Origin: Chiloscyllium plagiosum
Taxonomy: Eukaryota
Direction: 5' to 3'
DNA length: 61,393 bases
Assembly (NCBI RefSeq): GCF_004010195.1
Contig: NC_057756.1
Location: 10,432,911 to 10,494,303 of the forward strand
How positions within the stretch are numbered: position 1 is the first letter of the stretch; each line of letters begins with the position of its first letter. Below the pieces are notes generated by a model, which had not been told where the DNA came from, made no database searches, and worked only from the letters and a program-made list of their open reading frames with translations. Position numbers and translations under genes: made by a program. Positions 338-57,400 of the stretch are shown here, piece after piece.

Positions 338-361
338 GGGATGAATTACCTCCCGGCTTGA
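338..361 (+). CDS. 24-nt micro-exon (G)DELPPGL
   Basis: ctcttccacag|GGGATGAATTACCTCCCGGCTTGA|gtaagt; TGAC branch-like A at -23. Confidence 0.8.
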   Translation, partial: GMNYLPA

Positions 362-3300
362 GTAAGTTTGGATTTATTCAGTCTCGCTGAAATTAGCTCC
401 CTAAGTTGAGCATTGTAAAGCAGCCCGAATCTGTAAACACAACTTCCCTTCTCTACATTATTCAAATACTCACCTCCACTCAATCATATGTCAGCAAATT
501 GCTTACTGCGTTGATTTTGCCTTTTTGATATTAATTATTTTCTTCCGACAAATGTCATAAAAATCTCTGCACCCCACTGAAGTAGCTTATGCTGTCGATC
601 AAGAAAAACTTTTAATGTTGAGATATTTGTATCTCACGCATTTCGAATTTAAGAACTGGGAGCAGGAACCCTACCCCTTACAGATTCCCCTCTGAGCCCC
701 TCACCATCCTGACTTGGAAAATATCACCGTTCCTTCAGTGCCGATGGGTCAGAATCCTAGAACTCCCTCCTGAAGGGTGTTTGTGGGTCTGTCTACAGCT
801 CACGGACTGCAGCAGTTCAAGAAGGCAGCTCACCCCAACTTCTCAAGGTGTAATTGGGGATGAACAACAAATTCTGGGCCCAGTCCGTGACACCCACATC
901 ATGTCGATGAATTTTACAAGAATTGATCACACTTACAGTCAGATGAATACATGGTGCAGAGGTGAACGTGTCGGGATCTGCACTGACTGTTCTGAAATAT
1001 TCAAATCCTATAGATCTTGTGTCACAAACATTAACATAAATTATTCTCTTTCACAGCAGGTGGAAAAACTGGGGGCAAAGGTAAATATTTTAACTCAGGT
1101 GTTTAATTCTGTTGAATTTTGATGTACATGCCTCATCATAAAGACTAATGATGGTCCCTTGAAGTTCAATTCTTTCCAATATCTCACGGTTCAATCATAT
1201 TGGTTTATACATTTATAACATCTTCATATGGAGCATGTAATATTCTCTGGTTAAGCACAGCAGGTCAGGCAGCATCCGTGGAGCAGGAGAATAGATGTTT
1301 TAGGCATAAACCTGATGAAGAGCTTATGCCCAAAATGTTGACTCTCCTGCTCCTGGGATTCTGCCTGACCTGCTGTGCTTTTCCAGCACCACGCTCTCAA
1401 CTCTGAGCCAGGTTCCTATCCACAGAGCAGGACGAGCAGCTGAACATTGGGAACGACACCATCAGTTCTGGCTCTCTCTCCCCTTATACGGGTCATTTCC
1501 TCTTGGAATGAGAGGCAGGGAGTGATTGAAAGAGATGGCTGAGGGTAGTACAGTTGGAAAAGGTTGGGAGGAGTGGAGGGGGGCAAGGTGCTCTGAGTGA
1601 GTGAGTAGGCAGAGTGGGGCTTGTCATGTGTAGTGGAGCGGTGTGGAGGTGCAGTCTTTGGTCTGGTGCCGGGGTGGGGAACCTGTGGCCCTTAGACCAT
1701 TGCGTGTGGCCTTTTGAATGAATCCAAATTTTGCAGAACAGATCTTTTATTTTTTATTAATATGGTTTTTCATTCTTTATTATTTTTATTTTAATCTTAA
1801 AATGAATGTGTTTAAAATGAGAGTAAAAAAAATTTCAACGAAATAATCCTCACAGACTGACCGCCACAATTAAAAAATTGGTAAGTCATAAGGGCTATTT
1901 CAACATCTGCTATGCTCATGATTTAGTTATAATGCAACTCTAGAATGTATGTTGTCTTCCCCGCCTGACTGGCGCCACTATTGCCTGAGGCTGGTTGGCG
2001 AGAGCCTGTGGGTATCCAGTATGCCAGTGTTTATCAACTTATGACAACAGTGCACATGGCTTTCCATTTGAAGTGAAATTTGGGAATAGTTACACAGTCT
2101 AACTGTATCAACATTTATATAATTGAAGTTTCTTGGATGCGTCCTCTCTCACAAGGATTTTAGTGAGTCCCTCTCTCAGCTCTCCTCCTCCCTCTACAAG
2201 GATCTCAGTGAGTCTCTCTCTCACTGCACTTCCCAGATCATCTACCAGCGCCCCTCCCCCAAATTTCCTCCCCACTGCCTTTTATCTCGGCCCGCTTGGC
2301 ACACCAGACTCATTCCTGAAGAAGGGCTTATGCCCGAAATGTCGATTCTCCTGCTCCTCGGATGCTGCCTGGCCTGCTGTGTTTTTCCAGCACCGCATTT
2401 TTTGGCTGTGGCCTTATTAGATAACAACTAACATAATGTGGTCTTCCAACATGAAAAGGTTCCTCACCTCTGGTCTGGTGAATGAGGGAATTAGTTACAT
2501 GAGACTCTGAGAAAGGCAGAGCACGGGCCTTGGTGGGATGGGTGTGAGAGATGGGGCGAGCGCGAGGTATCGTAGCACTGATAGTGGCACAGAGCGGCGA
2601 GGGTCATTGCCCTTCTTCCGAAAACGGCAGCCATTTCTCTGCAGTGTGAATATTGCACTGACCCAAGTGCCAACCTTGGACCAGAGTGGCAGGGTCTGTT
2701 GGTCTCATGGGCAGTGAGGGGGTCTCTCTCTCTCTCACCCTATCCACCCGGACCTGATTAATTTTGAAAGGAAGTAATGAAATCTGTAATCTGTTGATCA
2801 TTGTCGATGTATTCACTGTGGTATACTGTTCTATGTTCTACTTTCAATTAATTCTCCGGAGACAATGTTAACATGAGCTAATCTCTTCTATAGGAGGGCT
2901 GTTACGTCCCAGCTTCGGTGAGAATACCCACTCAAATTCTTCAATCCTGCTTGATATAATTCTTCAATTTGATTGTGATTCTGTTGTCACAGTCCATAAT
3001 CAAATGTCCTTTCATCAGAGTATTGCAGTACACACTACCATTCATTTGTGTGCTAAAGCACTGCTAAGTCTGTGAATTTTTAATATCGGTGAAGAAATAT
3101 TCTTCAAACAACTCCGTGCAAATCTCCTTAATATTGCTGAAAAACCCTGCATTGTGTGGAAACTTTTCATCTTGCATTCATCAGGATATTTTGCAAGAAA
3201 GCAATTTCAAGAGGAGGACCAACATTGGTTGGTTCAGTTGCAGATCCTGATTGATAGACGTATTGCCATGGACGCATGATTATTGGCAACTCAACAAATT

Positions 3301-6300
3301 CAACCAACCTTGAAAGATAGAGAATGCCTGTCAACCACTCTCCTGCAATGTTAATATTGGTTTTGTTCTCGAGTTTGCATTCTTGCAAAATGTCCAGATG
3401 AGTGCATCTTTTTTCAACAATATTCAGGTTTTGCGTCTACCCAATTACAATTTGCAAATCTCTTTGTTGCTGTGGAGAACCTGAAGCTGTTGATTTTAGG
3501 AAATACTTTAGTCAGAGAATTTACACAAATCAAATGTGAAACACCTCATAGAATTGGCAATGACATATTATTATGGGATATGAGTCCTTCAGAGTAGCCT
3601 CAGCTGGTGAGGGGAATTGAACTCACAATGCTGGCATCCCTCTATGTCGCAAACTAGGCATCTAACAAACTGCGTTGATTTAAAGTGTCAACGTTATTGA
3701 CAGTGCTGGAAATTAAGCCATTACTCCCGTGGACCTGATGTTATACCTGCTTGGAAAACAAAATGTTACTTTCAGCTGTGAGACTCAGAGATATTTTCCA
3801 AACAATGGTTGAGAGATGCATAAGTTGAGGTTGGATCAATAATTGTATTATTTTAATTAATCACAAATAATTAATTATGGATGTTTGAATTGTCGAATAT
3901 GTTAATAAAACTGAGAGCAAATATGTGACTGGTAAAACAAAAGAATGTAAATTAGATTATTAGGGCTCAAGTTATTTATAAAGGAAACACCCGCTTGTAA
4001 TTGATGCTGAACTGACTGTATGAATTGATACACTAGTTCTCTGGAAGTATATATTTCTTTCAATTGAATTGTCAATTTCCGGTGCCAGCAATGTTAACAT
4101 AAATCCATCTCTTCCACAGGAGGGAAAAGACCATCTAGATTGGGTAAATATATTTTGTTAGTTGTTTAGATGTCCTGATTTATGTACTGATCTTGTTTTG
4201 AGCATGATAAGGTAACCACAATCTGTCAAAACATATCCTTTCATTCCATCATTGTAATGTTCAATGATGTTCATTCATGTGTGAAAATATTATCAACTGT
4301 GTTAACATCAGTGAGGAAATAATACAATTATATCCTGCAGTTTGTGCCACTACAAATCTTGTATTTGACTCGACAGCCACCTGATGAGGGAGCAGCGCTT
4401 CGAAAGCTAGTGATTCCAATTAAACCTGTTGGACTATAATCTGGTGTTGTGTGATTTTTAACTTTGTACTTGACTCACAATTGTTGGTTTGGCAAATATT
4501 TTAATATACATTATTTTAATAAAATCATTTGAAACAAATTGCTGACAGTTATATACTTAGAGAATACATTCTCCAGTGGCAGTTTAGAGAGACATTAAAA
4601 ACTGTATGTCCAGTGGTTTAACCATTAAACAGATCTGAATCAAGATTTTAAAAATAGGGAACGTGATGACTTCTCCTGCCTTTTATTGAAGCAGAACAGG
4701 TTTGTATTCCCTGTCACACATTTCTGAACAGGGAACCTTCTCCTCGTTGTCTATCCTCTTAACATAACTGAAGGCATCGCTGACTATTAATAACTACATG
4801 TTGAATAGACTACGTCAGATGTTATTTCAACAACCACTCTCATTGCAACAAGAAACACAAGGGTTTCCTTTTCACAGCCATTAGGATGTGTTTAATGTAG
4901 ACAGAAATGAATTCTTGAAAAATAAATGGAACTGTTGAATGCAATGAGCAAGAATTCAAATGAGAATGATCGATTGTTTTAATCTATCAATATTGTTTGG
5001 TGTATTGAAAATTATTCTGCTGCGCCCTTTGCTCAGATGTTATATGTTAGAACGAAAGCAGAACTGAGAAATATTTACAGATAGACATTAGTTTGAGACC
5101 TTGATATGTAATCCAGAAAATGAATGGAAGGTGAATGTGATGAAGTAACAAGTGTGTCAGTTATGTTGATGAATATAAATTATCACCCATTCTGTCCAGT
5201 ATTGCTGCATGTGTCAGGGCTCTGCATTGATTATGTTAAAATCTCCAATTCCAATTGATCCCTGTCAAGGGTAGTGACACCAATCTATTCATTCCACAGG
5301 AACTGGGAAATTTCCTAGACCCGGTAAGTATTTTATTTCATGACCTGAATTCTGCTCAATTGTGTTACATATGCTTCACTGTAAATTATAATGGCAGTGA
5401 TTCCAAGGGACATTAATGTTCACAATTTCTGATGAAGCCGCTCATCAAATGTGAAGTTTTATGTCACTCCCCTGCCCTGATGTGTCATCATGAACCAGAT
5501 CCCAATCAGGATTGATGACCTGTTAACATGATTACTGTTCTCTCATATTGTCTTCAAACATTGAACTTTTTAGCTCAGCTCAAAAGTGACTGAATAAGTC
5601 CCTTGAGCTCCTTAATTCTCAATTGTCTAACAGAATTAATGATATCTCTGACCCATCATAGCTATTGGCTGACTGCATCAGATATGACTGGTGTTAATTT
5701 AATACTTGCTGTCATTCCTGAATGAATGTCAAGAGTTATCCTTTCAAAGCCCAACATGGAGTGTTTAATATAACCATTAATGAGGGTGATTCTTTTAAAA
5801 GGAACTATTGCATGAAACAAAGTGCAATTTAATTCAGTCGGATCATTTTAATCTGCCAATATTATTTGGTTGTTTAGACACCACATTGGGGGCCATTCAG
5901 TTCCATTGACTGGATAGTTGCATTGTAGTGCAGAGTAATGCTAACAGCGCTGGTTCAATCCCTACCCTGGCTGGGGTCACCATGGAGGTCCCATTGTTTA
6001 ACCTCTCCAGCTGCCTGAGGGATTGTGACCGTACAACACTAGTTAGTTCTCTGTCCCAATCTCTGTCTAATGATAGAGTAGCCCGATGACCCTCTGGGGC
6101 AGTAGTGACTTCACTCCCTTTGAACAGGTGCAGTGAGTTATATAGTAAAAGTGTCTGATACGTATTTGCTGATAGTCTTTGGTTTGAGACCATGATATAC
6201 AATCCAGAAAATGAATGAAAGCTAAATATGATAAAGTAAAAAGTGTATCGGTTCTGATATTGAATAAAATGATCACACATGCAGTCTAGGATTGCTGAAT

Positions 6301-9300
6301 GTGTCAGGGCTCTGCATTGATTCTGTTAAAGTCCGCAAATCCTGCAGGATATGAGCACCAATCTATACATTCCACAGGGGTTCAGAGATCTCCTGTACCT
6401 GATCACTGTTTCAATTCTATGACACCAAATTTGCACAGTTTTGTCATATCACTGTACATTCTAAAGGCAGTAATTCCAAGGGACAGAAATGTTCGCAAAA
6501 CCCCAGCACAATTCAATTATCTTGATCATCCCATAGCTCATTCCCATTCATTTTCTGTGTTAGAAATAGATAAGTGTCTGCTTATTATGTCTTAAATATT
6601 AATGAAATGAATTAATATCGAGTGGGCATATTTGTGGTACCCAAAACTGTCATTCTAAAACATCTATGCATTCAATGAATTCATTTTATGACATCTAAAT
6701 AGATCATTCTGAATTACAATATATGTCGTAAAATGAATCTAATCACTCAAGATTACATTTAATCCCAAGAAGTGACTTAATGTATTGACCTGTCCTGCTC
6801 TGAGGTGACTGTTAACCAGGACACAGTCAATATCTATTGTATAATACAATAGCTATTCATTCACATATGGTAGCTGAACACTAAAAATGTATTAATTGTG
6901 ATGCAGGCTTTAAGGTAGGGAGAGAGATTTTTTACAGGAGCTGATTAATCCTTTTTTTCCTCATTTAAAAGCTTTGGAAACATCCGGTATCCCTATGCAA
7001 TGCTGTCTCCAGGTTTTATTTCATTTGGATCATGTCAATCAATGCAACAATTGTGTTGACATACCTGTCTTTAATTAATGTTTCAATTTCCAATGGACAC
7101 AATGTTAATACAGATCCTCTCTCCCACAAATGCATTCATAACATGCGATTCTTTCGCTTGACAGTGATAATTCCATTCCAATCTCTGAACAAATATCACA
7201 TCAATACACCTTTGCAATATTGATTGTCATTCATTCCTGTGTTTCAACACTATTTACTGTGTACATTTCCTACTGGGAAGGAAGTGATTAAACCAATTAT
7301 ACCATTCTCTTGGTAAGTATCTTAACTCCACCTGGAAAGCAAAAACTGGTCGTTTTGGCAAATTGTTTCGTTCAGAGAATTTCTGTCCCACATTTTTGCA
7401 TAGTTTGTTCAACAACATGAATTTGGAGTGTCACTTTGTGTGGACTGTTTGACTTGAGGGAAAGGTGAAATTGTTCATCAAATTTGAAATGCTATGTTCC
7501 TCTCCTGCCCTGAGGTGTGATCACTAAACAAATCCCAATTAGATTTAAAACATGAGAGATTTAAAATAAAAGCTGAGAGAGGCCAATATCCCATCACCAA
7601 GTTACCCTTTATTTACATGTGCACAGTACATGGGCTCTGACAAGCCAGCTCAGAGCCACTGGCTAGAATTAGGAGAGTCTCTGAATCCCCTGTTTTTTTT
7701 AATATATTAACCCCCACACTACCACCTAAGTGCGGTAGTGCTTATTTTTTCCTCAGCACCCATGGTGTGTGTGTGCAGGTGTGAGACACAGTGAAAGTCA
7801 CAAAGTGCACAAATCTTTATTCAATTTCCACCACCAGGAAGATAGGAAAACACCCGGGTGGCCAGTGACAAACACTGCCCTTCACATCAGAGGGCAATGC
7901 TGTGTGATCAAAACAGTGAAGGGGAGGGGAGGGACTAAATCAAAATAAATCCCCTGTTTATATCTGTCAGTGTGGGTTACCTGATTGAACAGTTTAACGA
8001 GCCCAATCAAGAGTCTCATAGTTAATGAGATCAATTTGGCCTTCTAGCCAACCACTATAGATTGTCTTCAGATATTTACCATCTGTAAGTTGTGTCATAC
8101 ATGACTAAAAATATACCAAAGTGTTGCCTGAGCTCCTTAGGCATCTACCCTCTAACAGAGCTAAATGTATTTCTGGCCCTTAATAGTTATTGGCTGAACA
8201 CATCAAATGTGACTGATGTTAATTTAACAGTGGCCATCATTCTAAAGGATTCAACAAGGATTTTCTGCTCACAGTTAATAGGAAGTGTTAATAAAGACAG
8301 AAACGAGGCTAATTTTTCAAAATGGAACTGTTGAATGCAATGACGGTGGCTCAGTGGTTAGCACTGCTGCCTCACAGCGCCAGGGACGCATGTTCGATTC
8401 CAGCCTCGGGTGACTGTCTGTGTGGAGTTTGCACATTCTCCCCGTGTCTGCGTGGGTTTCCTCCGGGTGCTCCGGTTTCCTCCCACAGTCCAAAGATGTG
8501 CAGGTCAGGTGAATTGACCATGCTAAATTACCCATAGTCTTAAGTGCATTAGTCAGAGGAAATGGGTCTGGGTGGTTTACTCTTCGGAGGGTCGGTGTTG
8601 ACTTGTTGGGCAGAAGGGCCTGTTTACACACAGTTGGGAATCTTATCTAAAGACGGAAAAGTCAATCTATGATGTATCATTTTAATCAGTAAATATCATT
8701 TGACGTATTGGCTATTATGGAGTTCCATTCTTTGAACAGGTATCATATGTTAGAAGAAAAAGAATTGACTGATCAAAATTTACTAGTAGCCTTCAGCTTG
8801 AGACCTTGATATATAATCGGGAAAATCATTGAAGATGAATTTGATGAGGTAACAAGTGTATCAGATACATTGTTGAATTAAGTTATCACATCACACGATA
8901 TTATTGAATGTGCCAGACTCTGCATTAATTCTGTTATAATACCCAAATTCAATTGTTCCCTAAAGAGGATATTAACCCAAACCTGTTCATTCCACAGGAG
9001 CTGGACTATCTCCAGGACCTGGTAATTATTTTATTCATGACCTGATTGTTGCTCAATTATTTGTTTAATGTTTAATTCTAAATTATAATGGCTGTAATTC
9101 TCAGGGACAGAAATGTTCACAAAACCCCAGCACACTCAAATGATGTAGACCATTCCCAGTCCATTGACATCATTTGCATGTGTTAAGAATTATGTAAGTA
9201 ACACTTTATTATATCCTAAATATTAACCAAAATAATTAGCACATTGACACAAATATACAGTATCCAAATTGTAGTTCTATGAATTGAATGAACTAATTTT

Positions 9301-48300: not shown

Positions 48301-51300
48301 TCTATAAACACAGAAGACAATATCATGAATTATGCTGAATCTTAATACACCCGTGACACTAATTATGTTGACATGATGTGCAAAAAAATACATTCACTCC
48401 TCACTCTTATCCCAGGAGAAGCTGAATATCACAGTCTTAGTACATTTCTAACTGTTGAGTAAATGCCATTGAACAGCAGAATGATTCAGTGAAGGGATTC
48501 TCTGTTCCAATTTTTATCTACCTTCCATCATTTTTTGCAATTAACCATTATGCATTACAATTAAACAAAATTAGTTTTCCAAAGTAAAATGTTTACCATG
48601 ACCAGTCGATTTACCAGCTCCTGTTGAAGACATAGATCTGTGTTCGCGTTCTCTCCACAAAATCAATTAAAAAATCACATTTTGATAGGAATTGCAAAGT
48701 GAACGACATATTCAGCACTGCAAGTGTTACCAACAAAATCAACTTGCAATAAGTACTCACTGCCACTAATCAGATTGAGCAATTGACCATCAGCAAAATA
48801 GTTAATGATTGTTTCTAAGAAAGAGCAGTTTTCCAGACTGGATAACAATGTATTTGCATGATGATGGGTAAATTGCAATTGTCTTCAATATCATTTAGCG
48901 ATAGCCTGACAGGGTTTTTTTGTGGGGATGTCTTTGAGAGCAATCTGGTAAGTGAGCACACCTCAAGATAGAAACAACTTGTACTTTCTGTGCGAGTGTT
49001 TGGGTGATTGGTTCTACTTTTCAAAAAAAAATGTATACATTCAAAGCGCAATTGGCCACTCACTCTTGGGGAACTGATGACCATGTGAGTCATAAAGTTC
49101 TCAGAAAAAATGATTCATGAGTAAATGTCAGTGAGCTGTGTGACAGTGTCATAAAGTCAGAGCTGTGCGATGAAGATCTCTTATTGGCTTTGATCTTTCT
49201 GAGCAGACAGATGTAATAAAGAGAATTCAATTAAATACGTGGAGCCAATCATACTCACCATATGCGGAAACTGCAGCAGTTCCTGGGGAACAAATAGACT
49301 GGTGTGAACAAAGTGTGAATGAAATATGATTACACATTCCGACCCAGATTGTGGTGGGCACTTGGAGCAACCAGTACCTAATCAATTGGACCATTTGTTT
49401 CAAACTCAATTCCACTTCTCATCGCTAATACATTGACAAAGTCAAACACTCCCAGGAGCACTTTCTTCTCTAAGCCATTTCAGTTCAGCTGAGTGAGCAG
49501 CTTAATTCAAGAAATGTCATGGTTTCTGGAAAAACATGGAATAACTGTTTTATACTCTGCTTTTAAGCTTTCGGTACATTCCTCATCTTATAAAGTGCTC
49601 ACTTGTCTGCACAAAATGTCTCTTCCAGGAGAAGTTCTCTTTGTCAGTGTAATGCCAATATATGGTCAAGAATTAGAGTACATGTGGGTTAATACTGTTT
49701 CTTTACACAAATAGATTTTACAGGCCATTATAAGGACAATCAGCAAATTGAGAAATTGCTGGGAAAACTCAGCAGGTCTGGCGGCATCTGTGGAGAGAAA
49801 TCAGAGTTAATGTTTCAGATCCAGTGACCCTTCCTCAGAACTGAACAAGACAATTAAGCATTATCAGGTCAAAGGCAATTAGTGAGTTCACATAAAAATA
49901 TCACCCTGCTGAGTGATGCACATGATCACATATGCGTCTTAAAAAGTAATTTCAAATGCAAGATGATGTAATTTAGTGTCGAGTAGATCAATCCTGATTG
50001 TGGCCTGGTCATCAAACACACCTCAGGGCAGGACGGAATCATTTACATTGTGAATGACTATAGAAAGTGTTTGGTTTTCCACTCTTTTTGAACAACTCTA
50101 TTGAAAATAAATTACAGAAGCAAATCTAAAACAAACGCATAGTGCACTGAGTTATGAGCTTAGTGAATATTTTTAAAAAGTATACAACATATGCAATTTG
50201 ACCACTACCAAGCCACTAAATGATTCAGAGCTGAAAAATGTGTTGCTGGAAAAGTGCAGCAGGTCAGGCAGCATCCAAGGAGCAGGAGAATCGACGTTTC
50301 GGGCATAAGCCCTTCTTCAGGAATGAGGAAGGTGTGCCAAGCGGGCTGAGATAAAAGGTAGGGAGGAGGGACTTGGAGGAGGGCCTCTCCCAAGTCTCTC
50401 CTCCCTATCTTTTATCTTAGCCTACATAGCACACCTTCCTCATTCCTGAAGAAGGGCTTATGCCCGAAACGTTGATTCTCCTGCTCCTTGGATGCTGCCT
50501 GACCTGCTGCGCTTTTCCAGCAACACATTTTCAGCTCTGATCTCCAGCATCTGCAGTCCTCACTTTCTCCTACTAAATGATTCAGGTTAACATAGGAACA
50601 GGATTAGGCCATTCAGCCCCTCAGCCTGTTCCAATGTTCAATGAGATCACAGCTGATCGGTGGACTCACTCCATATAGGAGAAAGTGAGGACTGCAGATG
50701 CTGGAGATCAGAGTTGGGAAGTGTGGTGCTGGAAAAGCATAACCGTTCAGGCAGCATCCGAGGAGCAGGAGAATTGATGTTTCAAGCATTAGCTTCCTGC
50801 TGAAGAGCCTATGCTTGAAACGTTGACTCTCTTGCTCCTCAGATGCTGTCTGACCAGGCTGTGCTTTTCCAACACCACACTCTCCAGCTCTCATTCCATT
50901 TACCTGCCATTGCCCCATATCCCTTAATAACTTCGCTTAACAAAAATGTACCTATCTCAGATGTAAAATTAACAACGGATCCAGCATCCACTGCTGATGG
51001 ATAAACGTATGGATGATAATGGAATTGTCTTGGTTAGATGGGTTTCAGACTGGGGTCTGTTATTGTGCTGTAATGTTCTGTGTTCTATATCGTTTGGGTG
51101 TAGAAGTGCTTCCTAACATCTCTCTTAAATGGTCTGGCCCAAATCCTCAAACTATGCCCCCTAGATCTAGACACCCAGCCAGTGGGAGTAGTTTATCTTT
51201 ATCTACCGAGTTCTTGTTAATACCTTGAGTGTTTTGATCAGGTTACCCCTTAACTTCCTACATTCTAGAGGAAACAGGCCAACTTTGCATATTATTTCCT

Positions 51301-54300
51301 TATAATATAACCCCTGAAGTCTAGATATCATTCTTGTAAACCTATATGGTATCCCCCTCCAAGACCAATCTATCCTTCCTAAGATGTGGTGCCCAGATCT
51401 GCTTAGAGTACTCCAACTGGAGTCTCGCCAAGGTTTTGTATGACTGTGGCACTAACATCTTGTGCATGGAATTTACTTGAATGTTCATTGGTGATTACTA
51501 AAACCAATGCAAATAAGTTCACATCATCAGTAATTTCTAAACCATGGATTGATATCAGTGAGTGATGGAATGATTTAATTGCCAAGTTGGTTTTGGAATT
51601 TGGAAGGTAAGATGAGTGGGTTTAGGTTTAAGGAGAGAAGGGAAAGATTTAAAAGGGATCTGAAAGGGCAGCTTTCTCACACATAGAGTTGTTCCCAAGT
51701 GGAACAAACTGCCAGAGGAAGTGGTGGAGACTGGTACAATGTCAACATTTAAAAGGCATCTGGATGGGGATATGGATAGGAAGGGTTTAAAGGGATATGG
51801 ACCAAGGGCTGGCAAATGAATCCTCTCCAATTTAGTAGCATCCTTCCTCCAGCAAGGAGACCTGAACTGCACACAGTATTCCAAAATAAGCCCCACCAAC
51901 GTCCTGTACAACCTCAATATGACATCCCAACTCCCATTCTCAAAGGGCTGAGCAATGAAGGCAAGCATGTCAAATGCCTTCTTAACCCCCCCGTGAAAGT
52001 TGCATTGCAGGGAGACAACAAACTATGTAAATGAACCTCTAGATCAGTCTGTACAGTAACACTACTCAGGGCTCTGTAATTAACTGTTATGCCCTGCCCC
52101 AGTTTATTTTACCAAAATACAATCCCCTGCACATATCCAAATTAAACTCCATCTGCCACTCCTCAGCCCACTGACCCAATCAATCAAGATCTTCTTGCAA
52201 TCTTAGATAACCTTCCTCACTGTCAACTATACTAATAATTTTGCTAACCATGCTTCTTAAATTCTCATCCAAATCAATTATATAAATTACAAACTAAAGT
52301 GGACCCATTATTGAACCCAGCGGAACACCGCCAGTCACAGGCATCCAGTCCAAAAAACAACCTTCCACCCGCACCCTCTGTCTCCCACCATCAGGCGAAT
52401 TTTGTATCCAATTGGCAAGCTCACCGTGAATTCCACATAATCTAACTTTACCAATTAGTTGACAATGTGAAACCTTGTGAAAGGCTCCACAAAAGTAGAC
52501 AATGTCTACTGCTTTACCTTTTTTGATCTCGTCCTCAAAAAACTCCATCAAGTTTGTGAGACATGATTTCCCTCGCATAAAGCCATGCTGACTATCCCTA
52601 TCAGTCTTTGCCTTTCCAAATACATGTACATCCTATTTCTCAGAATCCCCTCCAACAACCTACCCCTTCACCAGTGCCCAGACTCATAGGTCTATAGCTC
52701 TGAGGGTTCTCCTACAGCCTTTCTGAAATAAAGGCACAACATTAGTCACTCTCCAGACCTCCAGCATCTCACCTGTACCTGTAAATGATACAGTCTAAGA
52801 AAAAGGGGTAAGCTATTCAGGACTGAGACAAGGAAGAATTTCTTCACCCAGTGAGTTGGGAACCCCTGTAATTCTGTCCCACAGGAAGCTGTTGGGGGCC
52901 AGTTCATTAGATACATCCAAGAGGGAGATGGATATGGATCATGAGGATAAAGGGATCAAGGGGTACAGGGAGAGGGTGGGAATGGGATACTGAGATTTTT
53001 CAGGTAAAAACAATGACTGCAGATGCTGGAAACCAGATTCTGGATCAGTGGTGCTGGAAGAGCACAGCAATTCAGGCAGCATCCGAGGACAGGCAAAATC
53101 GACGTTTCGGGCAAAAGCCCTTCATGGGCTTTTGCCCGAAACGTCGGTTTTGCCTGTCCTCGGATGCTGCCTGAATTGCTGTGCTCTTCCAGCACCACTG
53201 ATCCAGAAACTGAGATTGATCAGCCAAGACTGTATTGAATAGAGGTATTAGCTTGAAGGGCAGAATGGCCTTCACAAGTTCCTGCGCAAATATCTCTGCT
53301 AGGGGTCCTAGACTTCCTTCCCTAACTTCCCACAACATCCTGGGATACACCTACCAGGGATTTATCCACTTTGACCATTTTTTTAGACTTCCTCTTCTGC
53401 AGCGATTGAAGAGGTTCAGATGGTGAGTCCTTCACGGTGACCTCAGGCAGCACCTCCGAGATTTGGACACACCTTTTTGGCATAACTCTGCAATCGCAGC
53501 TCAAAGGATTCTTGAGGGGCAGTGGTAGCGTCCCTACAGTTTGAGCCAGGAGGCCCGGGTTCATGTCTCACCTACTCCAGAGGTTTGTAATGACATCTCT
53601 GAACAGGAGAAGGTGAGGACTGCAGATGCTGGAGAGTCAGGGTCGAAATGTGTGGTGCTGGAAATCACAGCAAGTCAGGCAGCCTCCGAGGAGCAGGAGG
53701 GTCAACATTTCGGCCTTAAGCCCTTCATCAGGGATGTAGAGAGGGAGGGGGCTGAGAGATAAATAGGAGGTGGAGGTGGGGCTGGGGGGAAGGTAGCTGG
53801 GAAGGTGATAGGTAGATGCAGGTGGTGGGTGAAGCTGATAGATCGGAGGGGAGGGTGGAGCAGATAGGTGGGAAGGAAGATGGATAGGTAGGACAGGTCA
53901 AGGGGGCAGTGCCGAGTTGGAGGGTTGGATCTGGGATGAGGTGGAGGGAGGGGAGATGAGGAAACTGGTGAAGTCGGCGTTGATCTCGTGTGGTTGGAGT
54001 GTCCCAAGGCGCAAGATGAAGCATTCTTCCTCCATGCTTTGGGTGGCTTGGATTTGGAGGTGGAAAAGGCCCAGGATTTGCATATCCTTGGTGGAGTGGG
54101 AAGAGGATTTAAAGTAGTCGGCCACAGGGTGGTGGGGTTGTTGGGTGTTTGTGTCCTAGAGATGTTCCCTGGAGTGCTCCACAAGTTGGTGTACTGTCTC
54201 CCCAATGTATAGAAGACCACATTAAGAGCAACAGACACAGTAGATAAGGTGGGACAATATGCAGGAAAATGTCTGCCAGATGTGGGAGGATCCTTTGGGA

Positions 54301-57300
54301 CATTGGACAGAGGTGAGAGGAGAGGTGTGGGTTCTGGTTTTACACCGCTTTCGGCAGCAACGGAAGGTGCCAGGAGTGGAGGGTGGGTTTGGTGGGGGGT
54401 GCGCACCTAACAAGTGAATCACAGAGAGAACCTCTGAACAGGTGGATTAAAACAAACGGGTTTTTTTGCACCACAAGCCAACTGACATTCTCAACCATGG
54501 TGAACCTCAATCGGGACAACATCTAAACCACAAACAAAAATCACACACTGAAAGGTTTAAAATACATGCAAAGTGTCACATCAACAGATCCAATTCAAAA
54601 CATAAGTAATCCTCTGGCTTTGACTTTGGTTTTGATAAGTCTCAAACCATTTTGATTCCAAAACTTATTCTGATTTATAAAAAAAAAATTATTTGCCCGC
54701 CAAGATCACAGCAACAACAACACCACCACTGGGTTGCCATGGCAGCTGCTCTCCAACCTGAGAGCAGCCTTGAAACTGCCTGGATGAGGGCAGACTTGAA
54801 ACTGCTTAACTGCTCACCCTCCTCCAAACTCATAGAGTCATAGAGATGTACAGCACGGAAACAGACCCTTCGGTCCAACCCGTCCATGCTGGCCAGATAT
54901 CCCAACCCAATCTAGTCCCACCTGCCAGCACCCGGTCCATATCCCTCCAAACCCTTTCTATTCATATGCCCATCCAAATGCCTCTTAAATGTTGCAATTG
55001 TACCTGCACCACTTCCTCTGGCAGCTCATTCCATACACGTACCACCCTCTGCATGAAAAAGTTGCCTCGTAGGTCTCTTTTATATCTTTCCCCTCTCACC
55101 CTAAACCTATGCCCTCTAGTTCTGGACTCTGCCACAGGGAAAAGATTTTATCTATTTATCTTATTCACGCCCCTCATGATTTTATAAGTATCATGTACCT
55201 ATGCAAATGTCTTTTAAATATTGGAACTGGACCCACAGTCACCACTTCCTCTGGAAGTTCATTCCCTACACAAAACATAGAGTCATAGAGATGTACAACA
55301 TGGAAACAGACCCTTCGGTCCAACTCGTCTATGCTGACCAGATATCCTAACCTCATCTCGTCCCATTTGCCAGCAGTTGACCCATATTCTTCAAAACCCT
55401 TCCTAATCATGCACTCGTCTTGATGTCTTTTAAATGTTGTAATTGAGCCAGCCTCCATCATTTCCTCTGGCAGCTCATTCCACACATCTATCACCATTTG
55501 CAGGAAAACGTTGTCCTTTAGGTCCCTTTTATGTCTTTCCCCTCACACCCTATACCTATGCCCTCTAGTTCTGGACTCCCTCACCCGATGGAAAAGACCT
55601 TGTCTATTTATCATTTCCATGCCCCTCATGATTTTATAAACCGCTATAAAGGTCCCCCTCAGCCTCCGATGCTCCAGGAAAAACAGCCCCAGCCTATTCA
55701 GCCTCTCCCTGTAGCTCAAACCCTCCAACCCTGGCAACATCCTTGTAAATCTTTTCTGAACACTTTCAAATTTCACAACAGATTTATCCAGCTTCCTCAT
55801 TTGCCCTCTCCCCACCTTATCTCAGTCCCAACCGTCGGACTCAGCACCGCCTTCTTGACCTGCAATCTTCTTCCCGACCTCTCCGTCCCCACCCCCTCTC
55901 CGGCCTATCNNNNNNNNNNNNNNNNNNNNNNNNNNNNNNNNNNNNNNNNNNNNNNNNNNNNNNNNNNNNNNNNNNNNNNNNNNNNNNNNNNNNNNNNNNN
56001 NNNNNNNNNNNNNNNNNNNNNNNNNNNNNNNNNNNNNNNNNNNNNNNNNNNNNNNNNNNNNNNNNNNNNNNNNNNNNNNNNNNNNNNNNNNNNNNNNNNN
56101 NNNNNNNNNNNNNNNNNNNNNNNNNNNNNNNNNNNNNNNNNNNNNNNNNNNNNNNNNNNNNNNNNNNNNNNNNNNNNNNNNNNNNNNNNNNNNNNNNNNN
56201 NNNNNNNNNNNNNNNNNNNNNNNNNNNNNNNNNNNNNNNNNNNNNNNNNNNNNNNNNNNNNNNNNNNNNNNNNNNNNNNNNNNNNNNNNNNNNNNNNNNN
56301 NNNNNNNNNNNNNNNNNNNNNNNNNNNNNNNNNNNNNNNNNNNNNNNNNNNNNNNNNNNNNNNNNNNNNNNNNNNNNNNNNNNNNNNNNNNNNNNNNNNN
56401 NNNNNNNNNNNNNNNNNNNNNNNNNNNNNNNNNNNNNNNNNNNNNNNNNNNNNNNNNNNNNNNNNNNNNNNNNNNNNNNNNNNNNNNNNNNNNNNNNNNN
56501 NNNNNNNNNNNNNNNNNNNNNNNNNNNNNNNNNNNNNNNNNNNNNNNNNNNNNNNNNNNNNNNNNNNNNNNNNNNNNNNNNNNNNNNNNNNNNNNNNNNN
56601 NNNNNNNNNNNNNNNNNNNNNNNNNNNNNNNNNNNNNNNNNNNNNNNNNNNNNNNNNNNNNNNNNNNNNNNNNNNNNNNNNNNNNNNNNNNNNNNNNNNN
56701 NNNNNNNNNNNNNNNNNNNNNNNNNNNNNNNNNNNNNNNNNNNNNNNNNNNNNNNNNNNNNNNNNNNNNNNNNNNNNNNNNNNNNNNNNNNNNNNNNNNN
56801 NNNNNNNNNNNNNNNNNNNNNNNNNNNNNNNNNNNNNNNNNNNNNNNNNNNNNNNNNNNNNNNNNNNNNNNNNNNNNNNNNNNNNNNNNNNNNNNNNNNN
56901 NNNGTGAAAAGTTGCCCTTAGGTCCCTTTTAAAACTTTCCCCTCTCAGCTTAATCCTATGCCCTCTAAATTTGGACTTCCCTACCCTGGGGAAAAGACCT
57001 TGTCTGTTCACCCTATCCATACCCTTCATGATTTTATGAATGTCTATAAGATATTCCGTCAGCCTCCGACGCTCCAGGGAAAACAGCCTCTTCCTATAGC
57101 TGAAACCCTCCAACCCTGGGCAACATCCTTAGAAATCTTTTCACAACATCCTTCCGATAGGAAGGAGACCAGAATTGCATGCATCATTCCAAAAGTGGTC
57201 TAACCAATGTCCTGTACAGCCGCAACATGACCTCCCAACTCCTGTACCCAATACTCTGACCAATAAAAGGAAAACATCCCAAACGCCTTCTTCACTATCC

Positions 57301-57400
57301 TATGATGACTGAAATGTAATAACACGGATATGTTGCCGAGACATGGAATATTTACACAAAGCTAACTTTCCCGCAGGGGATGGGAAAGTTTCTAGCGATA
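338..57400 (+). CDS. Partial multi-exon gene made of tandem 24-nt phase-1 micro-exons encoding a Gly/Pro/Lys-rich 8-residue repeat protein (unidentified; extends beyond the window)
   Basis: 24 segments of exactly 24 nt flanked by pyrimidine-rich ...YAG and GT, plus one with a GC donor. Phase-1 frame open in all, while phases 0 and 2 contain stops. Spliced peptide: xDELPPGL-TGGKTGGK-GGLLRPSF-GGKRPSRL-GTGKFPRP-GAGLSPGP-GVGKSPGL-GAGKIPGP-GSQKFPAP-RVGKVPGT-GVIIPPAL-GAGKFPGP-GVGKFPGT-GVIIPPPL-(GGQKFPGP)-GIGKVPGT-GVIIPPPL-GAGKFPGP-GGQKFPAS-GAGKVPGT-GMIIPPPL-EVQKSPGH-GGGKDTAY-GEAEYHSL-RDGKVSSD. Confidence 0.8.
683..912 (+). mobile_element. LINE 3' end fragment (same family as 36874-37436)
   Basis: caccatcctgacttggaaa...gcagttcaagaaggcagctcacc...gtgacacccacatc matches the reverse complement of 36895-37090. 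Confidence 0.6.
1057..1080 (+). CDS. 24-nt micro-exon (T)GGKTGGK
   Basis: ctctttcacag|CAGGTGGAAAAACTGGGGGCAAAG|gtaaat; TAAC at -23; NAGNAG acceptor. Confidence 0.78.
1253..1406. mobile_element. Penelope-like (Neptune-type) pLTR inverted pair
   Basis: gcacagcaggtcaggcagcatcc ... ctgcctgacctgctgtgc around cctgatgaagagcttatgccc. Confidence 0.7.
2132..2403 (+). mobile_element. Penelope-like 3' fragment with pLTR and hammerhead motif
   Basis: cCTGAAGAagggcttatgcccGAAAtgtcgattctcctgctcctcggatgctgcc. Confidence 0.7.
2894..2917 (+). CDS. 24-nt micro-exon (G)GLLRPSF
   Basis: ctcttctatag|GAGGGCTGTTACGTCCCAGCTTCG|gtgaga; TAAC at -23; upstream gacaatgttaac homologous to D-type exons. Confidence 0.78.
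4120..4143 (+). CDS. 24-nt micro-exon (G)GKRPSRL
   Basis: ctcttccacag|GAGGGAAAAGACCATCTAGATTGG|gtaaat; TAAC at -23. Confidence 0.78.
4372..4468 (+). mobile_element. Penelope-like pLTR, family 2, with minimal hammerhead
   Basis: cacCTGATGAgggagcagcgcttcGAAAgctagtg...aaacctgttggactataatctggtgttgtgtgattttt. Confidence 0.7.
5300..5323 (+). CDS. 24-nt micro-exon (G)TGKFPRP
   Basis: cattccacag|GAACTGGGAAATTTCCTAGACCCG|gtaagt. Confidence 0.8.
6378..6401 (+). pseudogene. Dead micro-exon copy (G)VQRSPVP, donor lost
   Basis: ttccacag|GGGTTCAGAGATCTCCTGTACCTG|atcact: GT replaced by AT. Confidence 0.65.
7562..8059 (-). mobile_element. Solo-LTR-like element (same family as 16485-16708), interrupted by a retroposon
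   Basis: atcccatcaccaagttaccctttatttacatgtgcacagtaca...agccagctcagag is the reverse complement of the 16485 element. Confidence 0.65.
7696..7947 (-). mobile_element. Short poly(A)-tailed retroposon with 12-bp TSD
   Basis: aatcccctgttt at 7684-7695 and 7948-7959; T-run at left end. Confidence 0.65.
8341..8650 (+). mobile_element. HE1 SINE (tRNA-derived V-SINE)
   Basis: A box gtggctcagtggttagc, B box gttcgattcc, V-domain tgtggagtttgcacattctccccgtgtctgcgtgggtttcctccggg, CR1-like tail. Confidence 0.9.
8998..9021 (+). CDS. 24-nt micro-exon (G)AGLSPGP
   Basis: cattccacag|GAGCTGGACTATCTCCAGGACCTG|gtaatt. Confidence 0.75.
9732..9755 (+). pseudogene. Dead D-type micro-exon copy (acceptor damaged)
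   Basis: ctctcccaa GAGTGACAATACCTTCTGCTTTGA gtaata versus intact ctcccacag GAGTGATAATACCTCCCCCCTTGG gtaaat; the remaining AAG acceptor would give 23 nt. Confidence 0.6.
9985..10291 (+). mobile_element. HE1 SINE
   Basis: Same A/B boxes, V-domain and tctaa tail. Confidence 0.9.
10402..10721 (-). mobile_element. HE1 SINE (young)
   Basis: Reverse complement of HE1 with (ttaga)n tail at left. Confidence 0.9.
12185..12432. mobile_element. Nested Penelope-like pLTR fragments
   Basis: gctggaaaagctcagcaggtctgg...cctgaaaaagggcttatgcccgaaacgtcg...ccagtgatccttcctcaga. Confidence 0.55.
12682..13014 (-). mobile_element. HE1 SINE
   Basis: Reverse complement of HE1 with internal duplication of the ggccaat...acctgcaca segment. 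Confidence 0.88.
13421..13444 (+). CDS. 24-nt micro-exon (G)VGKSPGL
   Basis: tattccacag|GGGTTGGGAAATCTCCTGGACTGG|gtaatt. Confidence 0.75.
14198..14398. mobile_element. Penelope-like pLTR inverted pair
   Basis: cagcaggtcaggcagcatc...tcgacgtttcgggcaaaagcc / cctgatgagcttttgcccgaaacatcg...ctgcctgacctg. Confidence 0.7.
14476..14495 (+). pseudogene. Dead D-type micro-exon remnant
   Basis: ctctccccctgGTGATAATACCCCTGCTGG|gtaaat: acceptor AG lost, exon shortened. Confidence 0.55.
15171..15194 (+). CDS. Micro-exon A1 (G)AGKIPGP
   Basis: caatccacag|GAGCTGGGAAAATTCCTGGACCTG|gtaatt; TAAC at -23. Confidence 0.75.
15493..15516 (+). CDS. Micro-exon B1 (G)SQKFPAP, weak donor
   Basis: caatccacag|GAAGTCAGAAATTTCCTGCACCTA|gtcatt (non-consensus +3 C). 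Confidence 0.45.
16140..17140 (+). mobile_element. Composite CR1/HER1 remnant in cassette 1 (B-C intron)
   Basis: RT C-terminal peptide LLRPLLGNCTQFRSP...KLERVQKRLTR; nested opposite-strand CR1 tail and solo LTR. Confidence 0.8.
16485..16708 (+). mobile_element. Solo LTR (~224 bp) with 5-bp TSD AGAAC
   Basis: agaac|TGttgtg...ttaattCA|agaac; internal ccaat, cataaa (TATA-like) and agtaaa. Confidence 0.75.
17208..17231 (+). CDS. Micro-exon C1 (G/R)VGKVPGT
   Basis: cactccacag|GAGTTGGGAAGGTTCCTGGAACAG|gtattt. Confidence 0.75.
17963..17986 (+). CDS. Micro-exon D1 (G)VIIPPAL
   Basis: tctccaacag|GAGTGATAATACCTCCCGCCTTGG|gtaaat. Confidence 0.72.
18840..19299 (-). mobile_element. Young CR1/HER1 LINE 3' fragment
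   Basis: ORF SLEFRRLRGDLIETYKIIHGL...FFSQRVVGLWNSLP; (taagacca)n tail; private to one cassette junction. Confidence 0.9.
19499..19522 (+). CDS. Micro-exon A2 (G)AGKFPGP
   Basis: caatcagcag|GAGCTGGGAAATTTCCTGGACCTG|gtaatt; NAGNAG acceptor. Confidence 0.7.
19821..19843 (+). pseudogene. Dead micro-exon B2 (donor deleted)
   Basis: ccacag|GAGGTCAGAAATTTCCTGGACCT then taattca; the Ggtaattatt segment seen in other copies is missing. Confidence 0.7.
19961..20200. mobile_element. Penelope-like family 2 pLTR inverted pair with hammerhead motifs
   Basis: aaaaatcacgcaacaccaggttatagtc...ctccttcatcagg / CTGATGAaggagcagtgctccGAAAgctagtg...actataacctggtgttgtgtgattttt. Confidence 0.75.
20404..20724 (+). 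mobile_element. HE1 SINE
   Basis: Full-length HE1 motifs; private to cassette 2. Confidence 0.9.
21050..22415 (+). mobile_element. Composite CR1 remnant in cassette 2 including solo LTR 21743-21960
   Basis: Homologous to 16140-17140; TGtagtg...ttatttCA. Confidence 0.8.
22485..22508 (+). CDS. Micro-exon C2 (G)VGKFPGT
   Basis: cattccacag|GAGTTGGGAAGTTTCCTGGAACAG|gtattt. Confidence 0.75.
23217..23240 (+). CDS. Micro-exon D2 (G)VIIPPPL
   Basis: ctcccacag|GAGTGATAATACCTCCCCCCTTGG|gtaaat. Confidence 0.72.
24320..24343 (+). pseudogene. Dead micro-exon A3 (acceptor CAG>CAA)
   Basis: ttccacaa|GAGCTGGGAAATTTCCTGGACCTG|gtgttt; acceptor mutated and donor weakened. Confidence 0.65.
24641..24664 (+). 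CDS. Micro-exon B3 (G)GQKFPGP with GC donor (may be dead)
   Basis: ctttccacag|GAGGTCAGAAATTTCCTGGACCTG|gcaatt. Confidence 0.35.
24793..25437. mobile_element. Penelope family 2 pLTR pair with nested Poseidon-type Penelope 3' fragment (24893-25330)
   Basis: Same insertion site as 19961; nested GIY-YIG C-terminal coding text (HFDWDNTSILGQAKQ...EFLEAWHS). Confidence 0.75.
25960..27280 (+). mobile_element. Composite CR1 remnant in cassette 3 including solo LTR 26645-26868
   Basis: ORF YCTQFWSPH...KLERVQKR...RRLRGDLIEVYK; LTR followed by agaac. Confidence 0.8.
27347..27370 (+). CDS. Micro-exon C3 (G)IGKVPGT
   Basis: cactccacag|GGATTGGGAAGGTTCCTGGAACAG|gtattt. Confidence 0.75.
28114..28137 (+). 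CDS. Micro-exon D3 (G)VIIPPPL
   Basis: ctcccacag|GAGTGATAATACCTCCCCCCTTGG|gtaaat. Confidence 0.72.
28306..28510 (+). mobile_element. 5'-truncated HE1 SINE (with N gap)
   Basis: cagtggttagcactgttgcc...(aatct)n tail; flanked by ctacactattaa repeats. Confidence 0.85.
29418..29441 (+). CDS. Micro-exon A4 (G)AGKFPGP
   Basis: caatcagcag|GAGCTGGGAAATTTCCTGGACCTG|gtaatt; NAGNAG acceptor. Confidence 0.7.
29739..29762 (+). CDS. Micro-exon B4 (G)GQKFPAS
   Basis: ctttccacag|GAGGTCAGAAATTTCCTGCATCCG|gtaatt. Confidence 0.72.
30296..32658. mobile_element. Penelope-like element (Poseidon-type), rearranged: two minus-strand 3' ends plus a plus-strand RT/GIY-YIG part
   Basis: GIY-YIG motif YVGQTGRKLATRIHEH; RT motifs YKQTNGTPMGSPLSG, YVDD, LAFLDV, YRKPT; flanked by ataaatgtt duplication; stops and deletions present. 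Confidence 0.9.
32880..33942 (+). mobile_element. Composite CR1 remnant in cassette 4 (solo LTR deleted; extra minus-strand CR1 at 33344-33752)
   Basis: Homologous to the other B-C introns; (catagagt)n tail of the nested copy. Confidence 0.8.
34012..34035 (+). CDS. Micro-exon C4 (G)AGKVPGT
   Basis: cactccacag|GGGCTGGGAAGGTTCCTGGAACAG|gtattt. Confidence 0.75.
34808..34831 (+). CDS. Micro-exon D4 (G)MIIPPPL
   Basis: tcttccacag|GAATGATAATACCTCCCCCCTTGG|gtaaat. Confidence 0.72.
35955..36182. mobile_element. Penelope-like pLTR inverted pair
   Basis: gattagagtggtgctggaaaagcacagcagttcaggcag ... ctgcctgaactgctgtgcttttccaccatcactctaatc; flanked by agtaagtgtatca duplication. Confidence 0.75.
36330..36353 (+). 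CDS. 24-nt micro-exon (E)VQKSPGH
   Basis: cattccacag|AAGTTCAGAAGTCTCCTGGCCATG|gtaatg. Confidence 0.7.
36874..37436 (-). mobile_element. LINE 3' fragment (CR1/L2-group, distinct from HER1)
   Basis: Frameshifted RT C-terminal peptides YKARVR..REYSPL, YKMHCRNSLKILRQHLPNPR; T-run at left end. Confidence 0.65.
37660..38110 (+). mobile_element. CR1/HER1 3' fragment
   Basis: ggagggtttgagctataaggagaggctggatagg...aatgagctgccagaggaagtggtggaggc. Confidence 0.85.
38464..38487 (+). CDS. 24-nt micro-exon (G)GGKDTAY
   Basis: ctaacccaattctttctactcctcag|GAGGTGGAAAAGATACTGCTTATG|gtacat; CTAAC at -23; resembles the exon at 1057. Confidence 0.72.
38790..43387 (-). mobile_element. Decayed L1 (LINE-1) element, near full length, with gaps
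   Basis: ORF1-like LGLPEREE...PRPVLFQLQSYKERQ; APE motifs SWNVKG, LQETH, GGDFN, RIDMFF, SDH; LPISWLGRIALIK, GGLDFPDF; C-terminal CPKC...LLHCLWTC; poly(A) at 38790-38803. Confidence 0.9.
39959..40096. mobile_element. Penelope family 2 inverted-pair fragment inserted into the L1, 14-bp TSD
   Basis: caaatttctgatgt at 39945-39958 and 40097-40110. Confidence 0.8.
43888..44625 (-). mobile_element. CR1-type ORF2 endonuclease-region fragment interrupted by a Penelope pLTR (44167-44352)
   Basis: Peptide KVFNWGRGNYTAIRQ...INWKQLF...EPWMT; pLTR with tcgacgtttcgggtataagcccttcttcagg. Confidence 0.65.
44865..45672 (+). mobile_element. Nested CR1/HER1 3' fragments
   Basis: QLERIQKGFTRML; ESRTKGHRFKVRGERYKRDLRANFFTQRVVRVWNELP; ctctatgactct tail. 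Confidence 0.85.
46285..46905 (-). mobile_element. CR1/HER1 3' fragment
   Basis: LYKTLLQPHLEYCVQFWSP...LFSLERRRLSGDLIDTYK; (tagaaca)n tail. Confidence 0.9.
46980..48135 (+). mobile_element. Two CR1/HER1 3' fragments (46980-47468, 47650-48135)
   Basis: ggagagggtgcagaagaggtttaccaggatg; LEGLSYKERLVRLGL; ctatgttcta and ctatgactctatga tails. Confidence 0.8.
48416..48439 (+). CDS. Candidate 24-nt micro-exon (G)EAEYHSL
   Basis: cactcttatcccag|GAGAAGCTGAATATCACAGTCTTA|gtacat; same length and phase, unique flanks, weak donor. Confidence 0.5.
50228..50890. mobile_element. Two Penelope-like pLTR inverted pairs (50228-50571, 50677-50890)
   Basis: Long palindrome centred near 50385 with hammerhead motifs on both strands. 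Confidence 0.8.
51615..52790. mobile_element. CR1/HER1 fragments (+ strand 3' part, then - strand RT domain)
   Basis: Minus-strand GKSCLTNLMEFF...VDIVY...AFHKV...GVPLGSIMGPL; LYRTLVGLILEYCVQF. Confidence 0.85.
52998..53208. mobile_element. Young palindromic Penelope pLTR insertion with 9-bp TSD, inside a CR1 fragment
   Basis: 83-bp arms 53038-53120 and 53126-53208 with one mismatch; actgagatt at 52989-52997 and 53209-53217. Confidence 0.85.
53605..54440 (-). mobile_element. Neptune-type Penelope element 3' part (GIY-YIG plus pLTR)
   Basis: Frameshifted peptides CCRKRCKT...FSCILSHLIYCVCC, YIGET, FKSSSHS...MQILGL...RLGTLQPHEINADF, followed by pLTR with hammerhead core. Confidence 0.8.
54830..57303 (-). 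mobile_element. Cluster of CR1/HER1 3' fragments spanning an N gap
   Basis: (catagagt)n tails at 54831 and 55277; FESVQKRFTRMLPGLEGLSYRERLNRLGL. Confidence 0.85.
57377..57400 (+). CDS. Candidate 24-nt micro-exon (R/G)DGKVSSD
   Basis: gctaactttcccgcag|GGGATGGGAAAGTTTCTAGCGATA|gtaaac; GK at positions 3-4 as in the array. Confidence 0.6.

Follow-up and report, generated by a model that had tools for sequence, protein, structure and literature searches.

An array of exon-like 24-nt units in Chiloscyllium plagiosum, likely the middle of an apparently undescribed shark gene

Described systems closest to the array

Tropoelastin varies in two ways, by alternative splicing and by the gain or loss of exons in the genome (PMC12554196), and in ray eln exon repeats of 36 and 48 nt are described together with 24 KAAK motifs (PMC12733013). 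The MEGs of schistosomes have coding regions made up mostly of very small symmetric exons separated by long introns, with raised dN/dS, and are awkward for automatic annotation (PMC4350168; bioRxiv 10.1101/2023.06.21.545858). The SRRM3/4 neural microexons, 3-27 nt in length, are cassette exons that have donors with good U1 complementarity and are defined in part by a UGC enhancer that lies after the polypyrimidine tract and before the acceptor (bioRxiv 10.1101/2024.09.17.613571). In more general terms, disordered proteins show a tendency to symmetric exons that originate from internal tandem duplication (PMC3632108).

The locus considered here lies in a stretch of 61,393 nucleotides of Chiloscyllium plagiosum DNA, referred to below as the window, and includes 26 exon-like units of 24 nt that are likely the middle of an apparently undescribed shark gene, whose predicted product would be floppy and rich in Gly, Pro and Lys. 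With tropoelastin the array shares phase 1:1 borders (26/26 units), a Gly/Pro-rich low-complexity chain, replicated exon blocks, genomic exon gain and loss and the possibility of frame-neutral cassette skipping (PMC12554196; PMC12733013), and since phase 1:1 tropoelastin is extensively alternatively spliced (PMC12554196) some exon skipping is plausible here as well. The differences are a single exon length derived from one ancestral unit, one Lys per exon where ELN has KA/KP lysine pairs, little Ala, and the presence of His, Met and acidic residues; moreover, alternative splicing is documented for ELN while the array is known from genomic sequence alone. Lys is found in 18 of the 26 exons, twice in only one of them and never as KAAK, and thus lacks the arrangement expected of ELN cross-links. 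Synteny with limk1 and septin4/5, a signal peptide and a basic C-terminus with a pair of Cys are further marks of ELN. The 208 residues comprise 28% Gly, 17% Pro, 9.1% Lys, 6.7% Ala and 2.9% Asp plus Glu, with His and Met present, and so depart from the ELN pattern, in which Gly, Ala, Pro and Val predominate, His is absent and Met, Asp and Glu are nearly so, a definition that was made on amniotes and from which fish may deviate.

As in MEGs the exons are very small and symmetric, all 26 of those found being 24 nt. MEGs, however, are reported to be restricted to flatworms; their exons are of mixed length, 15 nt in most cases, their products carry a signal peptide and are secreted or anchored in the membrane, and pools of isoforms made by exon skipping are proven for them. 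Homology between the shark array and schistosome MEGs is not implied. The length of the units falls within the range of SRRM3/4 microexons, and donors with good U1 complementarity are a further likeness, but here microexons constitute the entire visible gene. The rule given for disordered proteins in PMC3632108 fits directly, although the array is an extreme case with at least 26 successive exons of the same size in 57 kb. Our literature search returned no description of the gene, nor a match to three of the exon peptide motifs, and the protein may already be annotated; for shark egg-case proteins nothing was found in passages of PMC9999432.

Units, their descent and their surroundings

When the plus strand was scanned for AG-(n)-GT/GC pairs, the length seen most often among strong ones was 24 nt (10/131). 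With a unit profile scored leave-one-out, members reach 20-86 bits and are distinct from background, and the final set obtained in this way has 24 intact plus-strand units of 24 nt between 338 and 57400, each bordered by AG and GT/GC, to which two on the minus strand are added. In all the window holds 33 recognisable copies, 26 with intact splice sites and seven dead (Table 1). The initial annotation had described every exon as eight codons in phase 1-1, and this description stands for the 24 plus-strand units, where it is the sole open frame; the two intact minus-strand exons, missed there, and the seven dead copies have to be added. A seed candidate at 48416 was dropped from the set on a leave-one-out score of -32, and the remaining AG-24nt-GT matches of the pair scan were set aside on account of their poor fit to the profile. 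A looser scan for acceptor plus donor at any exon length, which relies on the splice signature of the array so that exons with unrelated flanks would escape it, produced one extra pair (196 nt, minus strand), while each of 10 shuffles gave 0-1. Neither a terminal exon nor a signal-peptide exon was found within the window. The 26 exons encode 24 distinct internal peptides. A collagen G-X-Y reading was ruled out, as it is mismatched with the 8-residue period.

Table 1. Copies of the 24-nt unit and the minus-strand assembly piece (positions in the window; peptides are the internal codons; letters A-D are the types of the four-exon block)
Feature	Positions	Strand	Remarks
Intact, DELPPGL	338..361	+	Last base A; donor gtaagt
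Intact, GGKTGGK	1057..1080	+	CAG-CAG tandem acceptor, 24 or 21 nt
Intact, GLLRPSF	2894..2917	+	
Intact, GKRPSRL	4120..4143	+	Flanks D-type
Intact, TGKFPRP	5300..5323	+	Donor gtaagt, top U1 match 10/11
Dead copy	6378..6401	+	Donor GT lost
Dead, D-type	7100..7135 (~7130)	+	Lacks exon and donor; deletion shared with 11732
Intact, AGLSPGP	8998..9021	+	
Dead, D-type	9732..9755	+	Acceptor AG lost; donor degraded, 4/11 U1 matches
Dead, D-type	11700..11735 (~11732)	+	Exon and donor deleted
Intact, VGKSPGL	13421..13444	+	
Dead, D-type	14472..14495	+	Acceptor deleted, donor retained
A, intact, AGKIPGP	15171..15194	+	
B, SQKFPAP	15493..15516	+	Very poor donor CTA-gtcatt; likely skipped or dying
C, intact, VGKVPGT	17208..17231	+	Donor gtattt, 9/11 U1 matches
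D, intact, VIIPPAL	17963..17986	+	
A, intact, AGKFPGP	19499..19522	+	CAGCAG upstream, 24 or 27 nt
B, dead	19821..19844	+	Donor deleted
C, intact, VGKFPGT	22485..22508	+	Donor gtattt
D, intact, VIIPPPL	23217..23240	+	
A, dead	24320..24343	+	Acceptor AG lost, donor weakened
B, GQKFPGP	24641..24664	+	GC donor gcaatt, poor U1 pairing; likely skipped or dying
C, intact, IGKVPGT	27347..27370	+	Donor gtattt
D, intact, VIIPPPL	28114..28137	+	
A, intact, AGKFPGP	29418..29441	+	CAGCAG upstream
B, intact, GQKFPAS	29739..29762	+	Sole B copy with a sound donor
C, intact, AGKVPGT	34012..34035	+	Donor gtattt
D, intact, MIIPPPL	34808..34831	+	
Intact, VQKSPGH	36330..36353	+	CAG-AAG tandem acceptor
Intact, GGKDTAY	38464..38487	+	Donor gtacat
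12-kb assembly piece between two N gaps	43888..55909		Only minus-strand units (2 intact)
Intact, AGKSTGH	48597..48620	-	
Intact, TAAVSAY	49259..49282	-	Sister of 57377 in exon tree
Intact, DGKVSSD	57377..57400	+	Poor donor, 6/11 U1 matches

The exons and their flanks share common descent. Introns between 4.8 and 37 kb of the window align at ~64-75% identity, and a ~5-kb block of four exons (types A, B, C and D) is repeated four times on the plus strand at 15119..35600, with long blocks ~80-87% identical, establishing a four-fold higher-order repeat. Exons are both born and lost within the array, and two of the dead copies (~7130 and ~11732) go back to one common deletion. Since every copy has eight codons and phase 1-1, the frame survives both the duplication of a copy and its loss through decay of a splice site; of the two routes by which tropoelastin varies, genomic exon gain and loss is, as judged from the DNA, the only one visible in the shark array.

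The piece between the two N gaps, which occupy 43388-43887 and 55910-56903, contains no plus-strand unit. The peptide ends of its two minus-strand exons resemble those of the neighbours at 36330 and 38464, and one of the two is placed as sister of the plus-strand exon at 57377 in the exon tree, read for its topology only (Table 1). The AT skew of the piece, +0.020 (-0.019 to 0.056), is opposite to that of the main array, -0.031 (-0.048 to -0.012), yet the intervals overlap so that the skew is only a hint. The piece is probably a mis-oriented (flipped) part of the scaffold; a true inversion or a facing (convergent) paralogue is less likely.

Several other repeats occur in the window. A long LINE-like insertion, which we take to be L1-like, occupies ~38780-43387 on the minus strand in the intron that follows exon 38464; it has one gap inside, is cut by the next, and contains one frame with a sub-threshold match to an endonuclease/RT-family Pfam entry (PF14529, E 9e-5). 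A reverse-transcriptase fragment at 31420-32094 on the plus strand (PF00078, E 3e-8) lies inside the fourth higher-order unit and is flanked by inverted arms of ~396 nt with 93% identity, spanning 30334-32658. At 50235-50531 dispersed-repeat sequence forms a head-to-head palindrome with 148-nt arms, 93% complementary and 1 nt apart, which is either a real foldback or an assembly artefact. At positions 1-170 a 53-nt unit is repeated 3.2 times with 94% matches, in the manner of a SINE tail.

Reading frame and splice sites

The reading that we favour, and hold on balance to be probable, is that of a micro-exon gene, enlarged by tandem duplication, that encodes a disordered structural protein, with inclusion of exons mainly by default and leaky skipping of a few dying copies. 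It has to be weighed in the first place against an alternative that we regard as unlikely, in which the array acts as a MEG-like diversifier, with widespread, partly stochastic or regulated skipping generating a big pool of isoforms whose variety is the function.

None of the 26 exons has an internal stop in the phase 1-1 frame while the other two frames have 5 and 5, and readings in phase 0 and phase 2, both of which contain stops, were ruled out. It had been claimed that exons end in G or A without any stop at a junction, and that any subset of exons can be joined in frame. We confirm both statements: the final base is G in 23 exons and A in three, and all 650 ordered pairings of exons give a sense codon at the junction, Gly in 531 of them. 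The first two bases are GA or AA in 20 of the 26 exons, so that a T at the end of the exon joined to them would create a stop codon; none of the 26 ends in T. Frame safety in every subset is what a diversifier would have. It is known, however, that an exon must be symmetric to be duplicated in tandem without a frameshift and that the donor consensus itself calls for G at -1, the last base of the exon. Descent of all units from one intron-exon unit means that eight codons and phase 1-1 are inherited by every member, and any-subset frame safety results because the exons are tandem copies of one symmetric unit with the usual -1 G. Since a single constitutive transcript requires identical frame safety, the property is no sign of selection for combinatorial use.

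In order to compare donors we have used as a proxy for strength the number of matches over 11 bases (-3 to +8) to the 5' end of U1, the sequence of which we take from general knowledge. The mean is 8.1 for the 26 donors as against 4.3 for 3158 decoy GTs, and at least 8/11 matches are present in 18/26 donors and in 1.3% of the decoys. Good pairing of most donors speaks against widespread skipping. Donors had been described as ranging from the consensus gtaagt to weak gtattt, gtcatt, gtacat and gcaatt; all of these are present as quoted, but by U1 complementarity gtattt does not belong among the weak ones, as the four gtattt donors (17208, 22485, 27347, 34012) each have 9/11 matches, a level reached by 3 of the 3158 decoys. 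A G at +5 is found in only 4/26 donors, and its absence from the other 22 is a point in favour of a diversifier; with so few +5 G donors, and with 24-nt exons being hard to define, skipping could be common. From the base pattern extended U1 pairing at the donor edges seems to replace the usual +5 G. Position +7 is A in 24/26 donors and +8 is T in all 26, steadier than the G at +5. At 7312 a strong donor-like site stands alone, with no acceptor to go with it.

By duplex energy the poorest donors are those at 15493 (-0.2), 24641 (a GC donor, -1.5) and 57377 (-1.8). Two of these three, 15493 and 24641, belong to type B, of which another copy, 19821, has lost its donor by deletion, and their condition looks like decay. 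That the poorest donors are found in a visibly decaying type of exon argues against a MEG-like gene.

CAGCAG tandem acceptors are present at 1057, 19499 and 29418, the three NAGNAG sites that had been noted from the start, but that list lacked a further one with AAG (36330) and 15 with a downstream GAG. The preference at tandem acceptors is CAG > TAG > AAG > GAG (PMC2699507), so that splicing to the downstream GAG in the 15 tandems of that kind is probably rare. In the CAGCAG class both AGs are of the preferred type (PMC2699507), a point in favour of a diversifier. Two derived point mutations seem to account for the three CAGCAG sites, one at 1057 and one shared by 19499 and 29418. TAAC is found at the branch-point position in 15/26 units. 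A TGC motif, searched for in the interval -25 to -4, is seen at none of the 26 acceptors as compared with 23% of 3572 decoy AGs, the 26 being non-independent copies; this counts against a MEG-like diversifier and also separates the units from SRRM3/4 microexons with their UGC enhancer.

Selection, competing readings and meaning

Identity among 12 diverged copies is 0.57-0.71 over -30 to -1, 0.66 over +1 to +10 and 0.24-0.36 farther out, in an ungapped profile that overlaps the unit-search window and is calculated from non-independent copies. Within the four-fold repeat the exon columns show 10 changes where 23.4 are expected from the introns (P=0.0016), while constraint on the acceptor regions is not significant (25 changes, 29.9 expected). 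For codons the picture is different: dN/dS is ~1.3 and no different from 1 (log-likelihood -361.90 vs -362.36), leaving no codon-level purifying signal, and over all exon pairs pS = pN = 0.49. The value of 1.3 is reminiscent of schistosome MEGs with their raised dN/dS (PMC4350168) and, together with 24 distinct internal peptides from 26 exons, is what a diversifier might produce, but it is not significantly above 1. Splicing signals seem to be under stronger selection than the sequence of the peptide, and in our reading of the DNA splicing, length and open frame would be kept and single copies be dispensable, with a peptide that drifts in a Gly/Pro/Lys style. Synonymous exon sites at 15119-35600 are nearly unchanged, a hint of splicing-enhancer constraint inside exons. 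A bolder idea, which we consider doubtful, is that of a vertebrate counterpart of the MEGs, with 8-residue modules free to diversify, splice signals under selection, and a large pool of isoforms shuffled by skipping that would tune a secreted material or barrier protein.

It is less likely again that the array is a once-coding gene which in this species has fallen silent or is in decay. The seven dead copies among 33 and a dN/dS of about 1 would be expected in that case, and the core AG/GT columns of the young four-fold repeat have been lost at close to the neutral rate (3/16 changed, 4.0 expected). All three core losses, however, are confined to types A and B and spare C and D, the exon columns of the same repeat are constrained, and 26 exons remain intact without stop or indel at a mean pairwise difference of 49%. 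In neutral simulations on the exon tree all 26 exons were free of stops in 4% of 2600 runs, or in 16% with halved branch lengths, a comparison in which stop-bearing exons were eligible for the set but the frame was selected as the open one.

Improbable, too, are non-coding spliced units (a lncRNA or untranslated exons) or a degenerate tandem repeat that merely resembles exons. An exact length of 24 nt in 26/26 units, a single stop-free frame, and the absence of a final T from exons most of which start with GA or AA speak against such an origin, even though third codon positions vary no more than the other two (identity 0.47 vs 0.43 and 0.42) and, in the young repeat, conservation is highest at synonymous sites (pS 0.019 vs pN 0.084; 2 synonymous and 23 non-synonymous differences in 18 non-independent pairs). 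Finally, that the array belongs to the tropoelastin gene (eln) of the shark itself, as a part that has diverged and been amplified internally, is highly improbable, for against its phase 1-1 borders, its Gly/Pro-rich chain, an apparent alternation of Lys-bearing with hydrophobic VIIPPPL exons (in the four-fold repeat each hydrophobic exon goes with three Lys exons) and the multiplied short exons of fish eln genes (PMC12733013) stand the lysine arrangement and composition described above, a uniform length unlike that of the ray repeats, and the description of shark and ray tropoelastin as well conserved (PMC12733013).

Under the favoured reading, a tandem-duplicated micro-exon gene, the 33 tandem copies of intron plus 24-nt exon, 26 of them intact, would make up the central part of a large shark gene, presumably transcribed and spliced mostly with default inclusion to give a predicted disordered chain rich in Gly, Pro and Lys. 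In-frame skipping would be a by-product of the duplication history and would be expected mainly at the exons with poor donors (15493, 24641 and 57377), with further variation at the CAGCAG acceptors; the outcome would be modest heterogeneity in length of the tropoelastin kind, and not a combinatorial code under regulation. The protein may be secreted and structural, with possible cross-links at lysine, and its bulk composition would outweigh exact sequence.

That symmetric phase 1-1 exons permit cassette skipping is a principle already published for tropoelastin and MEGs. What is of note is a probable, apparently undescribed shark gene in 24-nt exons, of a kind that ORF-based annotation is expected to miss, and an array that displays the birth and death of exons in progress.
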